The notes under the pieces: model-generated
What the model was told of the DNA's origin: nothing
The model's input: only the letters and a program-made list of their open reading frames with translations
Database searches by the model: none
Made by a program: the position numbers and the translations under genes
Part shown: in pieces, positions 14,947-57,512 of the stretch
Layout of the letters: each line of letters begins with the position of its first letter
Position numbering within the stretch: the stretch's first letter is position 1
Origin: Candidatus Magasanikiibacteriota bacterium
GTDB taxonomy: Bacteria > Patescibacteriota > Patescibacteriia > Magasanikbacterales > UBA922
Length of the DNA stretch: 64,000 nucleotides
Assembly: GCA_014729395.1 (NCBI GenBank)
Contig: WJJZ01000001.1
Coordinates: forward strand, 67,727-131,726
Direction: 5' to 3'

Positions 14947-15471
14947 GTCTTGTTCATTATAGATGATCGTCCACCAAAGCCCGAACGAAGTGAAGGCGAA
15001 GGTGGAAGGAAAGTCCGAACTTCCCCTAAAATATTTTAGGGTCATGGTAGTGGGTAACACCCACCTGGGCATTGGCGACAATGTTTGCGGGAAAGTGCCA
15101 CAGAGACTATACTAATTGCGAAGCAACTATGGTGCTTCGCAGCCAAACGTGAAAAGTGTAAAGATGTTTAATTTTATCGCGTACGCTATAAATTAAGCTA
15201 CTTTACTCCGGCCGTGGTGACACGGTTTGGTGGTAAACCCTACCTGAAGAAAGAGCAGCGTCCCGACTTTAGTCGGGATGAAAAGTTAGCTCGTTATTAT
15301 CCTGAGTATATCGAAGGATTAGAGTTTGTTGGTAACAGCAGACCTAGATAAATGATCATCGCCCTTCGCTAAAGCTACGGGCGACAAGTCCAATTCAATA
15401 GAAAGAAAGGGACTTGTACTCCGAAGCTTTAGCGTAGGAGTACAAAATTCGGCTTATTTAATGGACAAGAC
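14947..15471 (+). ncRNA. rnpB: RNase P RNA (bacterial type A, with lineage-specific helix expansions, ~525 nt)
   Basis: Conserved GGAAGGAAAGTCCGAAC (P4), GGTAACACCCACCTGGG, GGGAAAGTGCCACAGAGA, GGTGGTAAACCCTACC, CCTAGATAAATGA and ACAAAATTCGGCTTATT. P1 pairing is GTCTTGTTCATTA with TAATGGACAAGAC. Confidence 0.85.
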
Positions 15472-15475
15472 AAAA

Positions 15476-15507
15476 AAGATCCCGACACATCGGGATTTTT
15501 TGTTGTG
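15476..15507 (+). terminator. Intrinsic terminator of rnpB (GATCCCGA-CACA-TCGGGAT + T6)
   Basis: Hairpin 15477-15497 then TTTTTT. Confidence 0.6.
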
Positions 15508-15591
15508 TGCTGGAGAGAGGACTTGAACCTCCACGACCTTGCGGCCACAGGCCCCTCAAGCCTGCGTGTCTACCAGTTCCACCACTCCAGC
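15508..15591 (-). tRNA. tRNA-Leu (anticodon GAG), class II with a long variable arm
   Basis: The reverse complement folds as a cloverleaf: acceptor GCTGGAG/CTCCAGC, anticodon arm CAGGC-TTGAGGG-GCCTG, variable arm TGGCCGCAAGGTCGT, T-arm GGAGG-TTCAAGT-CCTCT, discriminator A; CCA not encoded. Confidence 0.85.
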
Positions 15592-15625: not shown

Positions 15626-15694
15626 TAGCCTGCGTGTCTACCAGCTTGCCCCGCGAGGAGCGAAGCGAGTTTTGCGGGGTTCCACCACTCCAGC
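15626..15694 (-). repeat. Partial duplicate of the tRNA-Leu 5' half (nt 1-33) interrupted in the D-loop by a 35-nt GC-rich hairpin (15645-15679)
   Basis: 15626-15644 and 15680-15694 are identical to 15558-15591 of the tRNA-Leu gene. The insert is CTTGCCCCGCGAGGAGCGAAGCGAGTTTTGCGGGG. No 3' half follows. Confidence 0.6.
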
Positions 15695-52325: not shown

Positions 52326-53141
52326 TTATTTTTTTTTATTCCCAACACGATAGTCGCTTGCATCCCAAACAAACCCTATTTCATCTAATTTTCTTAGACG
52401 ATCCGGATCCATGGTTCCATCTTTGTACTTTTTCCTCTGGTAACAGACCCAGCGACCAAGTGGATGTCTGGACGGAACCAATAAATCACCCTCCTCTTCG
52501 TAGTATACCAACAATTGATCAAAATTATTCTGCCAAATCACATCAGATACATTCCACACAAAACCAACTTTATCCAATAATTCCTGTCTTTTTTTGGGCA
52601 TGTTTCCATTTTTTCTTGCTTCTCTTTGACTTTTAACCCATGCACCGAGTGGGTGTTTTTTGGGTATTAAACAATCACCATGCTCGTTAATATACTCTTT
52701 CAATGCAATATATTTTAAATACCATCGCCTTTCAACGGATGTTTTCCGCTCCCATTCAAAACCAATAGATTCCAAACGCTCTTTTCTATCGGTTCTGATT
52801 ATTTCTCTGGAATATCTTTCCCGTTGATAGTCTACCCATCTAGATAATTCATGCTTTATCGGTACATTACAATGTCCATTCTTCTCTCTATATTTTTTTA
52901 ATTTCAGAAATTTGCGATTCCATTTCTTTTCTAAAATTTTTGCTTCCCACTCAAAACCCAAATTATCAAGCTTCTTTTTTCTTTCTGATTTTAACTTACC
53001 CCTCACCCTTGCATGGCGCTGCCTATTGCACCATTCGTAGAGTTTGTGTCCATAGGGCACTGTTGCCGTTCCGTGCGTTTTTGCATACTCCTTCAATTCT
53101 TTGAATTGCTTTTTCCAGGACAATTCTTGTTTGTTACTCAT
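52326..53141 (-). CDS. Protein of four tandem helicase-associated (HA) domains
   Basis: Four repeats of ...W..F..LK.Y...HG.C.VP.......LG.WV..QR......L...R...L..LGF.W; strong SD AAGGGAGG before ATG 53141. Confidence 0.7.
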   Translation of the reverse strand: MSNKQELSWKKQFKELKEYAKTHGTATVPYGHKLYEWCNRQRHARVRGKLKSERKKKLDNLGFEWEAKILEKKWNRKFLKLKKYREKNGHCNVPIKHELSRWVDYQRERYSREIIRTDRKERLESIGFEWERKTSVERRWYLKYIALKEYINEHGDCLIPKKHPLGAWVKSQREARKNGNMPKKRQELLDKVGFVWNVSDVIWQNNFDQLLVYYEEEGDLLVPSRHPLGRWVCYQRKKYKDGTMDPDRLRKLDEIGFVWDASDYRVGNKKK

Positions 53142-53203
53142 GTTTCCTCCCTTGTATTTAAAAAGATCATATAAAAACTTAGCAAAAAAATACATTTTTG
53201 TAA

Positions 53204-55264: not shown

Positions 55265-55293
55265 TTGAAAAATCAAGATAAAAATGATAATAT
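55265..55293 (+). promoter_or_regulatory. Sigma70-type promoter TTGAAA-17-TAATAT upstream of tRNA-Ile
   Basis: TTGAAA 55265-55270, TAATAT 55288-55293. Confidence 0.5.
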
Positions 55294-55317: not shown

Positions 55318-55390
55318 GCGCCTGTAGCTCAGGGGTTAGAGCACAACGCTTATAACGTTGGGGTCGGTGGTTCAATTCCACCCAGGCGCA
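55318..55390 (+). tRNA. tRNA-Ile with a genomically encoded UAU anticodon (loop CTTATAA)
   Basis: Canonical cloverleaf: GCGCCTG/CAGGCGC acceptor, D-arm GCTC-AGGGGTTA-GAGC, anticodon stem CAACG/CGTTG, T-arm GGTGG-TTCAATT-CCACC, A73; CCA not encoded. Confidence 0.8.
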
Positions 55391-55394
55391 CAAT

Positions 55395-55658
55395 ATGCAC
55401 TACGTTTATTTTCTCTGGAGTGAAAAATTAAAAAAAATATATATTGGGGAAAATAAAAATGTTTTGAACAGACTTGATTATCATAATAAAGGTTTGCAAA
55501 GATTTACTAAGAGAGGTATCCCCTGGAAACTTATAGGAGTAGTAGAATTCAAAGACAGAAAAGAAGCTTTAAAAGAAGAAAAAAGACTTAAAAAATGCAA
55601 AAATAGAGATTATTACAAAAAATACTTATTAGAAAAAGGAGGAAAACTCAGTGGTTAG
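55395..55658 (+). CDS. Small GIY-YIG nuclease-domain protein (87 aa)
   Basis: YVYFLWSEKLKKIYIGENKNVLNRLDYHNKG matches GIY...YIG...R...H...E; the stop TAG lies inside a GGTTAG that mimics the tRNA D-loop. Confidence 0.7.
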   Translation: MHYVYFLWSEKLKKIYIGENKNVLNRLDYHNKGLQRFTKRGIPWKLIGVVEFKDRKEALKEEKRLKKCKNRDYYKKYLLEKGGKLSG

Positions 55659-55717
55659 TCCCGACACGTCGGGATATAACGTTGGGGTCGGTGGTTCAAT
55701 TCCACCCAGGCGCACAA
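55652..55717 (+). repeat. Duplicate of the tRNA-Ile 3' half (anticodon loop to 3' end) preceded by a GC hairpin TCCCGACACGTCGGGA
   Basis: 55675-55717 is identical to 55351-55393; the hairpin 55659-55674 resembles the rnpB terminator hairpin. Confidence 0.65.
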
Positions 55718-55738: not shown

Positions 55739-56473
55739 ATGGAACCTCAAAAATTTCAAAAATTAATAAATATTGCTGAGGAAAAAATGATTGCATGTAA
55801 AGACCCAATTCATGACATTGGCCATGCCAAACGAGTTGTTGCACACGCAAATGTATTAAGCAAAGACTTAAATTTTAACTCATTTGATCACCAAGTGCTA
55901 ATCTTATCATCATGGTGGCATGATGCCAGTCGATCCATTTCAGGCAAATCTTCCTTGGTTTGGATGACTTGCTTTGATGATATACTTTCCGCGTTTATGA
56001 TGCTTTGGACATCCATTAAATACAATATTTTTTCAAAAGTTGTTTTAAAATCTTTTTTGATGCTTGTTTGCAAAAATATAGGCACAGGTACATTGTTTAC
56101 AAAAATATTTATAAGAAAAAAAGATAGATTACTACTAAATGCCATACACGATGCTGACAATTTAGATGTAATTTACCTGGAACGTGTTAAAACCATATAT
56201 AAAATGGTAGACAGCTCAAAAACATATTACTATGCTTACAAAATAACCATACAATGGTATTTAAGAAGCAAAGATTTATATATGAAAACAGATGCTGCCA
56301 GAATTTATGTAGAAAAAATGATAAAAAAATTTATAGAATGGCTAAAAGATAAAAGTGTAATGTATTGGCATAAAAAAATATTTGGCTGGAAATGGGTCGA
56401 AAAAAATCTGGCTGGAATTGAGAAACTTCATTCAAAAATCATATTAAAAAATTTACAAACTCAAATTTCTTAA
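55739..56473 (+). CDS. HD-domain phosphohydrolase
   Basis: HDIGHAKR...WWHDASR metal-binding His/Asp motifs. Confidence 0.6.
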   Translation: MEPQKFQKLINIAEEKMIACKDPIHDIGHAKRVVAHANVLSKDLNFNSFDHQVLILSSWWHDASRSISGKSSLVWMTCFDDILSAFMMLWTSIKYNIFSKVVLKSFLMLVCKNIGTGTLFTKIFIRKKDRLLLNAIHDADNLDVIYLERVKTIYKMVDSSKTYYYAYKITIQWYLRSKDLYMKTDAARIYVEKMIKKFIEWLKDKSVMYWHKKIFGWKWVEKNLAGIEKLHSKIILKNLQTQIS

Positions 56474-57281: not shown

Positions 57282-57512
57282 ATGCCAGCCAGAAAAAGAA
57301 AGACCACAAAAAAGAAAGCCGCACCGAAAAAAAGAAAGACTACGAAACGTAAAACTACAAAGAAAAGAAAGCCAGCAAAGAGAAAGACAACTAAAAAAAG
57401 AAAACCGGCTAAACGCAAAACAACAAAGCGTAAACCTGCAAAGAGAAAAAAAGCTGCTCCAAAGAAAAGAAAGCCAGCTAAACGAAAAACAACACGCAGA
57501 AAAAAAAGATAA
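57282..57512 (+). CDS. Histone-H1-like lysine-rich DNA-binding protein (KRKTTKKRKPA repeats)
   Basis: Strong SD GAGGGGGTGA 8 nt before ATG; 76 aa with >55 percent K/R/A/P/T; followed by a terminator. Confidence 0.6.
   Translation: MPARKRKTTKKKAAPKKRKTTKRKTTKKRKPAKRKTTKKRKPAKRKTTKRKPAKRKKAAPKKRKPAKRKTTRRKKR

Follow-up and report, generated by a model that had tools for sequence, protein, structure and literature searches.

The window analysed here comprises 64,000 nucleotides (64 kb) of contig WJJZ01000001.1 from a Candidatus Magasanikiibacteriota bacterium and has a G+C content of 36%. It contains a compact cassette, in which an open reading frame (ORF) for a small GIY-YIG nuclease is placed between an intact tRNA-Ile(UAU) gene and a displaced pseudo-tRNA marked by a hairpin. 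In the following, L-numbers are labels of compared loci and W denotes the window. The parts of the locus, all on the forward strand, are:

55265-55293 (+), promoter-like site TTGAAA-17 nt-TAATAT with a TG-extended -10 element (consensus scan; putative function)
55318-55390 (+), tRNA-Ile(UAU), intact, without encoded CCA (ARAGORN; Rfam tRNA model)
55351-55393 (+), proximal copy of the repeat, composed of tRNA nt 34-73 and the 3-nt trailer CAA
55395-55658 (+), GIY-YIG ORF, 87 aa (Pfam PF01541)
55647-55658 (+), segment CTCAGTGGTTAG, derived from the D-loop, which remains of the 5' part of the displaced pseudo-tRNA
55659-55674 (+), signature hairpin TCCCGACACGTCGGGA, i.e. TCCCGA-CACG-TCGGGA
55675-55717 (+), distal copy of the repeat, forming the 3' part of that pseudo-tRNA

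ARAGORN called the tRNA as tRNA-Ile(tat) at 55318-55391, and the Rfam tRNA model scored 72.5 bits at 55318-55390; it is the sole tRNA-Ile(UAU) gene within the window. The ATG of the ORF lies 4 nt past the tRNA discriminator and is not preceded by a Shine-Dalgarno sequence. The last four codons and the stop of the ORF are derived from a tRNA D-loop, whose TAG serves as the stop codon. Apart from the ORF, sequence that does not come from a tRNA is limited to 4 nt ahead of it and 16 nt behind it. The direct repeat is exact over 43 nt (55351-55393 and 55675-55717), the next base being T in one copy and A in the other; an exact repeat of this length within 64 kb is far beyond chance. Downstream of the distal copy, the gene of an HD-like protein starts at 55739.

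A first-pass annotation of the window had reported the tRNA, the 87-aa ORF, the hairpin and the exact 3' copy, and all four were found where it had placed them. Its statement that the GIY-YIG gene is the only cargo likewise holds: the repeat-bounded unit of ~324 bp contains the 87-aa ORF alone. The description of the distal copy as a duplicated tRNA 3' half is correct for the 43 nt and has to be extended by the D-loop sequence that the copy also retains, as CTCAGTGGTTAG (55647-55658) is identical to the D-loop region CTCAGGGGTTAG of the tRNA (55328-55339) at 11 of 12 positions. Because this sequence precedes the hairpin, the distal copy is a nearly full-length pseudo-tRNA and not a mere 3' half; in it, the hairpin stands in for nt 23-33 (AGCACAACGCT) of the tRNA. 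The same arrangement of a D-loop remnant of this type recurs in L001, L007, L008 and L015. The repeat had also been taken for a target-site duplication; it consists instead of a replacement and a displaced copy of the tRNA, the latter with D-loop sequence and a conserved hairpin, and is not the product of a staggered cut.

A minimal GIY-YIG nuclease

The sole Pfam match of the 87-aa protein is the GIY-YIG domain (PF01541, E=1e-13, residues 1-71). Residues Y5, Y16, G18, R26, H30, N31 and E62 are invariant in an alignment of 13 sequences, and E61 is invariant in an alignment of 12. The ratio of nonsynonymous to synonymous substitution rates (dN/dS) of the gene is 0.06-0.19, which indicates that the protein is under strong purifying selection and functional. 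A profile search against solved structures gave the UPF0213 proteins BH0048 (1zg2, E=1.8e-11) and EF2693 (1ywl, E=6e-9), followed by Slx1 (E=1e-5) and the catalytic domain of I-TevI (1mk0, E=0.2). The AlphaFold2 (AF2) model, with a predicted local distance difference test score (pLDDT) of 88.7, consists of one beta-beta-alpha-beta-alpha-alpha domain. Its best PDB matches in Foldseek were Slx1 nuclease domains (30-34% identity) and both UPF0213 proteins; I-TevI and UvrC ranked lower, with 19-20% identity.

The protein is a stand-alone GIY-YIG domain in the ~80-110 aa range that matches BH0048 and EF2693, and it does not have the architecture of I-TevI and the Seg proteins, in which a GIY-YIG domain is joined via a linker to a C-terminal DNA-binding domain (~200-270 aa). 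Judged by its sequence and its predicted fold, it is a single-domain nuclease of the Slx1/UPF0213 (YhbQ) type and not an I-TevI-like protein; the designation as homing-endonuclease-like in the first-pass annotation has to be given up in this respect. Stand-alone prokaryotic domains of this type have been placed in the Slx1 cluster and are considered a minimal, possibly ancestral form of GIY-YIG (PMC1564403). A GIY profile matched 10,584 clusters (50% identity) at E<=1e-3, the best 150 of which are mostly 80-130 aa in length. Only 3 clusters reach 1e-30, so that the Ile-specific subfamily is small. PHROGs contained no match for the protein, NCBIfam neither a match nor an equivalog, and PADLOC reported weak domain-level matches only, to PDC-S14.

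Occupied, empty and scarred sites in Magasanikbacteria

Twelve close homologues of the GIY protein were found (49-100% identity). The identical protein is annotated in a metagenome-assembled genome of Candidatus Magasanikbacteria, which belong to the CPR/Patescibacteria, and a look-up of its exact sequence yielded no recorded contig. The order of genes shared by their contigs is ribosomal protein L19, Gmk and RluD, followed by tRNA-Ile(UAU) and the GIY gene, and then by a 240-250-aa HD-like protein and DUF389. In most of these loci, a pseudo-tRNA of the form GGTTAG-TCCCGA-N4-5-TCGGGA-TATAACGTTGGGG is located 3' of the GIY gene. In one group (L010, L041, L045) the hairpin stem is found in the T-arm instead, in L009 the pseudo-tRNA copy has decayed, and several loci possess additional hairpin-bearing pseudo-tRNAs 5' of the real tRNA. 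In L004, a run of N (1084-1093), i.e. a scaffold gap, lies inside a pseudo-tRNA array; repeats of this kind break or confuse metagenome assemblies.

For a survey at the species level, one genome per species was scanned with the HD-like protein, which yielded 45 Magasanikbacteria loci. The tRNA-Ile(UAU) gene adjoins the HD gene in 41 of them, and an intact GIY gene is present in 6. About 24 of the 45 species have clean sites, in which RluD, tRNA-Ile and the HD gene follow each other without a GIY gene, a hairpin or a partial tRNA copy; about 10 have scarred sites with partial tRNA copies, hairpins or a GIY stub. In L050, a stub (16-codon tblastn match) directly follows the tRNA and is fused to the start of RluD; L047 and L038 contain pseudo-tRNA repeats without a GIY gene between them; partial tRNA duplicates occur in L044, L054, L055, L061, L029 and L034. 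These clean and scarred sites in relatives bear out the earlier proposal of an insertion at a tRNA gene. In a neighbour-joining tree based on RluD and the HD protein, species with the GIY gene appear at no fewer than six (>=6) places, each with empty sisters.

The orientation of tRNA-Ile(UAU) between the divergent RluD and HD-like genes switches many times across the clade, both in empty and in filled loci. Irrespective of this orientation, the GIY gene invariably lies immediately 3' of the tRNA and on the same strand. Because it remains co-oriented while the tRNA flips, the GIY gene tracks the tRNA and not the flanks. Together with the empty and scarred sites, this finding rules out a conserved housekeeping gene of the YhbQ-like kind in stable synteny, which had been named as the outcome that would speak against an insertion: intact copies are confined to 6 of the 45 species, and remnants exist.

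Two further observations concern the L036 clade. A comparison of L036 with the empty locus L030 places the distal copy where the original tRNA 3' end is located relative to the promoter of the HD gene. In addition, the acceptor stem of the functional tRNA reads GGGCTAG in this clade, whereas the flanking pseudo-copy reads GGGCCAA and in this respect resembles the empty relative L030 (GGGCCAG). This suggests that the working tRNA of the L036 clade may have been imported with the cassette.

Age of the cassette and concerted evolution of the repeats

Compared with the window, identity values are 61-73% for GIY, 62-71% for L19, 47-50% for RluD, 34-61% for Gmk and 31-40% for the HD protein. Pairwise GIY identity is 87-91% for close pairs and 55-72% for distant pairs and follows the relatedness of the hosts. 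Since identity follows the hosts, dN/dS is low and catalytic residues are invariant, the cassette is an old element of the clade that encodes a functional protein, is mostly inherited vertically and is frequently lost. It is no recent insertion private to one lineage, as it occupies one and the same locus in lineages with GIY identities of only 61-73%.

Over 43 nt in W, 42 nt in L008 and 41 nt in L007, the distal 3' part agrees with the tRNA of its own genome at every position (100% identity), whereas these three differ mutually at 3-7 of the repeat positions; between the W, L007 and L008 lineages, synonymous sites in the GIY gene have reached saturation. Being identical within a genome and different between lineages, the repeat copies evolve in concert, either by ongoing gene conversion or by repeated re-copying of the cassette. 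A recent transfer is possible in the case of L002, which shares with L001 a tract of 935 bp (L001 2610-3544) that is 100% identical and centred on the cassette, the flanks being 52-87% identical. Both contigs stem from the same sample, and the independently assembled L064 has the flanks of L002 at 100% and its own cassette at 86%. The tract is either a recent replacement of the cassette or an assembly chimera.

Related nuclease genes at other tRNAs

A scan of metagenomes with the GIY alignment gave 61 loci (33-72% identity), 45 of which remained after dereplication with enough upstream sequence. In 38 of these 45, a tRNA gene lies on the same strand within ~0.5 kb of the GIY gene, in many cases with partial tRNA duplicates; the background elsewhere in these metagenome loci is 5 tRNAs in 82.5 kb. 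The closest subfamily is found at tRNA-Ile(UAU) and a large one at tRNA-Asp(GUC); others are linked to Leu(UAA), Ser, Asn and Lys. The loci are arranged in three ways. The first corresponds to the window, with the tRNA, the GIY gene and the 3' part of a pseudo-tRNA in this order. The second is its mirror image, in which a copy of the 5' half precedes the GIY gene and the intact tRNA follows (L074, L075, L077). In the third, the GIY gene lies between a tRNA and a second intact tRNA (L108). Tandem arrays of pseudo-tRNAs exist in L010, L075 and L038.

The stem TCCCGA...TCGGGA takes the place of the whole anticodon arm in the pseudo-tRNAs of Leu(UAA) and Lys, and that of the variable loop in the pseudo-tRNA of Asn. 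The Asp clade has a different stem, TCTCG(Y)C...G(R)CGAGA, the inner positions of which covary, whereas the loops vary freely. A tree of the GIY proteins groups them both by tRNA type and by hairpin type; nuclease lineage, tRNA and hairpin thus diversify together. In the literature covered, which mostly excludes subscription journals and therefore provides weak evidence on this point, we found no description of tRNA-linked UPF0213/Slx1-like GIY-YIG cassettes, neither for bacteria of the candidate phyla radiation (CPR) nor for Bacteroidetes, and none of hairpin-marked pseudo-tRNAs in CPR bacteria.

A more complex locus was seen in a different genome (L013, 1400-3400), where GIY-YIG genes for 62 aa and 89 aa are interspersed among tRNA-Tyr, Thr, Trp and Ser. 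Here, the 89-aa ORF shares 37 nt with the 5' end of tRNA-Ser(UGA), and the last ~30 nt of this ORF together with 14 nt of the tRNA are duplicated upstream, beside GC hairpins. The gene of a 548-aa large serine recombinase overlaps on the opposite strand, and two tandem repeats of ~120 nt follow tRNA-Tyr.

A probable homing-type cassette and its proposed propagation

We consider it fairly probable that the unit is a homing-type selfish cassette residing in the tRNA-Ile(UAU) gene, which preserves the tRNA that it has invaded and which is old, mostly vertically inherited and often lost. The ORF would be co-transcribed with the tRNA from the promoter of the latter, because there is no room for a promoter of its own or for a Shine-Dalgarno sequence. 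The promoter-like site at 55265-55293 likely drives this co-transcript; a promoter motif (cTTGAAAAATCAAG...TATAAT) also occurs 5' of the tRNA or of the pseudo-tRNA array in L036, L009, L027, L035, L038 and L030. Trimming of the tRNA 3' end by RNase Z would yield a near-leaderless GIY mRNA, which is suggested by the position of the ATG 2-4 nt past the 3' end of a tRNA or pseudo-tRNA in five lineages (W, L007, L008, L009, L010). The nuclease may break DNA in or next to the tRNA-Ile gene or the hairpin-bearing copy, and repair of the break may copy the cassette, the 5' part of the tRNA and the repeated 3' part serving as portable homology arms. Such arms would explain why the gene follows the tRNA independently of its flanks and why a tRNA that is essential is never lost. 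Gene conversion would keep the repeat copies identical, as their lineage-specific identity suggests, and recombination between the repeats would delete the cassette, a loss in keeping with the scars and perhaps also with the clean sites.

Five points weigh against this interpretation. The simple scheme of a nuclease that cuts the empty tRNA gene and spares its own copy has no immunity mechanism, because nt 23-33 match those of empty sites: in the intact tRNA of genomes with the GIY gene this segment is identical to that of many empty-site tRNAs, and no resistance substitutions were found in it. Neither Pfam nor the AF2 model revealed a DNA-binding domain in the 87-aa protein, so that a source of sequence specificity is missing. 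A scan of viral contigs with the GIY alignment detected no relatives. GIY identity tracks the divergence of the hosts and provides no clear case of horizontal transfer. Finally, L002, which alone looks like a recent transfer, may be the product of a chimeric assembly.

In an alternative that we regard as unlikely, a domesticated host nuclease of the UPF0213/Slx1-like kind has a cellular role, e.g. in the repair of DNA at a tRNA locus that is fragile and highly transcribed, or in the processing of RNA or tRNA. The gene would be inherited vertically and lost repeatedly, and the pseudo-tRNAs would be by-products of local recombination. A host function would agree with a GIY identity that tracks host divergence, always exceeds that of RluD and is about equal to that of ribosomal protein L19, as well as with the low dN/dS and with UPF0213 proteins and Slx1 as closest relatives; moreover, the fusion of an Slx1-like domain with a TrmH-type tRNA methyltransferase, which is on record for prokaryotes, hints at RNA metabolism (PMC1564403). 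It is at odds with the absence of the gene from the locus in ~85% of the species, with the truncated remnants, and with the occurrence of different nuclease clades at different tRNAs, each accompanied by hairpin-marked partial tRNA duplicates. An NCBIfam equivalog, too, is lacking, and nothing comparable was noted around the tRNA-Ser of the window, although a partial tRNA-Leu duplicate without a GIY gene lies at 15627-15693.

The hairpin as a possible recognition element

The window hairpin with its flanking TATAA did not occur in any of 100 shuffles, and its predicted stem is lengthened by GUUA/UAAC pairing. Within -450/+250 nt of GIY genes, 30 TCCCGA hairpins were counted, whereas none of the 35 GC-rich hairpins elsewhere in these loci is of this type. 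The covariation in the stem points to selection on the folded form. As no T-run follows, the window hairpin is not an intrinsic terminator, and a terminator scan found none. A binding site for a dimeric protein is disfavoured by loops of 4-9 nt and by the covarying inner stem positions. Selection for acceptor-stem pairing in the distal pseudo-tRNA was likewise dismissed: L036 looks compensatory (AAATCAA/TTGATCT), L015 and the window do not. Rfam contained no known RNA family for the hairpin or the pseudo-tRNA.

These properties lend themselves to a broader reading, which is rather improbable in our view: a structure-specific GIY-YIG nuclease and its own hairpin may form a kind of mobile element that has so far not been recognised and that uses tRNA genes as universal landing pads. 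As part of this reading, the nuclease would recognise the hairpin instead of a DNA sequence, and the element would bring along a functional tRNA, whereas the resident one would be left disrupted by the hairpin. The large UPF0213 family would then gain its first functional context, and such elements would be one source of the turnover and inversion of tRNA genes in CPR bacteria; the pair of hairpin and nuclease is directly testable with a few oligonucleotides.

Slightly less credit still is due to a hairpin-guided element resembling REP/RAYT or IS200/IS605, whose nuclease would recognise and nick the TCCCGA...TCGGGA stem-loop in single-stranded DNA or in a cruciform. Its tRNA-bearing ends would recombine with tRNA genes and thereby generate insertions, tandem pseudo-tRNA arrays and inversions. 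Slx1 cleaves branched and stem-loop DNA. Because the stem covaries and the nearest structural relatives cut DNA of this shape, a hairpin-guided mechanism is a serious rival. It is further in line with the specificity of the hairpin for GIY neighbourhoods across five tRNA types, with the freely varying loops, with the co-variation of hairpin type and nuclease clade, with the tandem arrays of L010, L075 and L038, and with L010, where hairpins are found on both sides of the GIY gene; in the window, the TCCCGA-type stem occurs in 3 of 21 GC-rich hairpins, all of them at stable-RNA genes. On the other hand, the hairpin is one-sided in the window, L009 has an intact GIY gene beside a decayed hairpin, and many relatives linked to tRNA-Asp are without a perfect hairpin in a hairpin scan of GIY loci. 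One of the three hairpins, that at 15480, is moreover an ordinary bidirectional terminator.

The two other copies of the stem among the 21 GC-rich perfect hairpins of the window are located at 15261-15278 and 15480-15495. The former (TCCCGACTTTAGTCGGGA) lies within RNase P RNA and is partly aligned by Rfam as an insertion; this RNase P RNA (class A, 14950-15472, +, 116.8 bits) comprises 523 nt as compared to 367 model positions and has several large insertions. The latter (TCCCGACACATCGGGA) has an A-run on one side and a T-run on the other and is the bidirectional terminator between RNase P RNA and the convergent tRNA-Leu(GAG) gene (15507-15591, -). The partial duplicate of this tRNA at 15627-15693 (5' 33 nt) lies 36 nt upstream of the real gene. 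Its D-loop is broken by a 34-nt insert with the hairpin CCCCGC-AAAACTCGCTTCGCTCCTC-GCGGGG, and no GIY gene is nearby; a hairpin loop near-identical to AAAACTCGCTTCGCTCCTC is present in the L009 pseudo-tRNA upstream of tRNA-Ile.

Integrative elements and introns

That the unit is the remnant of an integrase-mediated element with attL and attR sites, the GIY gene being leftover cargo, is very improbable. Direct repeats of the tRNA 3' part do flank the insert, as in tRNA-targeting islands, and had been read as the footprint of integration or homing. However, an integrase is absent from every locus examined; in >20 independent loci, none was found within the cassette or beside it. The unit always measures ~0.3-0.5 kb, the distal copy also holds 5' tRNA sequence and the hairpin, and mirror-image arrangements with 5'-half duplicates exist. 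As neither a tyrosine nor a serine recombinase is encoded in the unit or adjoins the Ile-type loci, the island remnant was rejected. The repeat breakpoint in the anticodon loop (33/34) and the presence of tRNA-Leu(UAA), a classic intron host, among the targets of the family might recall a degenerate group I intron that is lodged in this loop and carries a homing endonuclease gene. Such an intron is refuted for all practical purposes by the intact tRNA, by the shortness of the stretches not derived from a tRNA (just 4 nt upstream and 16 nt downstream of the ORF), and by the lack of an Rfam match to an intron family or ribozyme core, even at E<=1.

Relation to known systems

With respect to its class, the cassette is probably a homing-type mobile ORF (mORF) that replaces part of its target gene. 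Such mORFs are known from fungal mitochondria, e.g. from atp6 of Allomyces macrogynus and from atp6, atp9, cox2 and nad3 of Glomus, where 3' ends of genes are duplicated (PMC3630166). In both cases, a free-standing endonuclease ORF resides in an essential gene, a replacement 3' part is found upstream and the native 3' part is displaced downstream, relatives possess alleles without the ORF, and the ORF is co-transcribed with the host gene, which for the cassette is our expectation. The cassette displays three features of an mORF: the catalytic motif is intact, duplicates of the 3' part lie on both sides of the ORF and the host gene is intact, and there are alleles that lack the ORF or in which it has decayed. 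It differs from mORFs in that its host gene is a bacterial tRNA and not protein-coding, its nuclease, a minimal domain of the Slx1/UPF0213 type, has no DNA-binding module, its displaced copy retains 5' sequence and a conserved hairpin, and its two copies are identical, whereas those of mORFs are divergent.

SegB of phages T4 and T6 is a free-standing GIY-YIG homing endonuclease encoded in a tRNA gene cluster; it cuts within tRNA genes, and microhomology between the 3' end of its own gene and the 5' end of a tRNA leads to tandem amplification of tRNA segments (PMC2330249, PMC13096335). The cassette shares with SegB the location of a GIY-YIG gene among tRNA genes, and the amplification recalls the pseudo-tRNA arrays of the cassette family. 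In contrast to the cassette protein, SegB is larger, phage-encoded, equipped with a DNA-binding module and not associated with a hairpin-marked pseudo-tRNA. A sequence relationship beyond the catalytic domain is not evident, given an E-value of 0.2 for the I-TevI type, no PHROG and no viral relatives.

Characterised UPF0213/YhbQ members are single-copy host genes and are not known to be linked with tRNA genes or repeats. The cassette protein resembles this family in its size class of 80-110 aa, in its single GIY-YIG domain and in its best sequence and structure matches (1zg2, 1ywl; PMC1564403). The cassette gene differs in being patchily distributed, embedded at a tRNA and flanked by pseudo-tRNAs. 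As to hairpin-guided systems, the small nuclease genes of REP/RAYT and IS200/IS605 are flanked by short conserved stem-loops, which also exist as orphan copies; they encode HUH (Y1) transposases and are not known to target or duplicate tRNA genes. The cassette protein is a GIY-YIG and not an HUH (Y1) enzyme.

If the homing-type interpretation is true, selfish elements of this kind extend to chromosomal tRNA genes of bacteria and to the smallest GIY-YIG proteins, which lack a DNA-binding domain, and the cassette exemplifies an element that occupies an essential single-copy tRNA gene without killing it. The tRNA genes and the signature hairpin provide a genomic context for a subfamily of the widespread and functionally obscure UPF0213/Slx1-like proteins. 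The cassette also accounts for pseudo-tRNA debris, tandem arrays of tRNA fragments and assembly breaks at CPR tRNA loci in metagenome bins.

The UAU anticodon and further features of the window

The first-pass annotation had called a genomically encoded tRNA-Ile(UAU) rare. This is true for bacteria in general, where such genes are uncommon and known from species without tilS, e.g. Mycoplasma mobile (PMC3575796), but not for the clade studied here: UAU is found at the locus in 41 of the 45 Magasanikbacteria species, and in none is it replaced by a CAU tRNA. Within the 64-kb window, to which this search was confined, no PP-loop ORF was detected. In the long ORFs of the window, ATA makes up 35% of the Ile codons.

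Three further features of the window were noted. At 40961-41035 (+), ARAGORN predicted a tRNA without an assigned identity, which has an 8-nt anticodon loop (CTTATCAA) with the 4-base anticodon 'tatc'. Its D-arm (GCGGCCGGCGCCGC) is GC-rich, CCA is encoded, and it scores below the gathering score of the Rfam tRNA model. The 76-aa ORF at 57282-57512 (+), overlapped by ORFs on both strands, consists nearly entirely of Lys/Arg/Thr/Pro/Ala repeats (KRKTTKKRKPAKRK...) and, to judge from this composition, looks like a very basic, histone-H1-like protein. The 289-aa ORF at 52326-53195 (-) contains about four tandem repeats of ~65 aa with the motif W..(Y/L)..L..(Y/F)...(H/E)G...VP.

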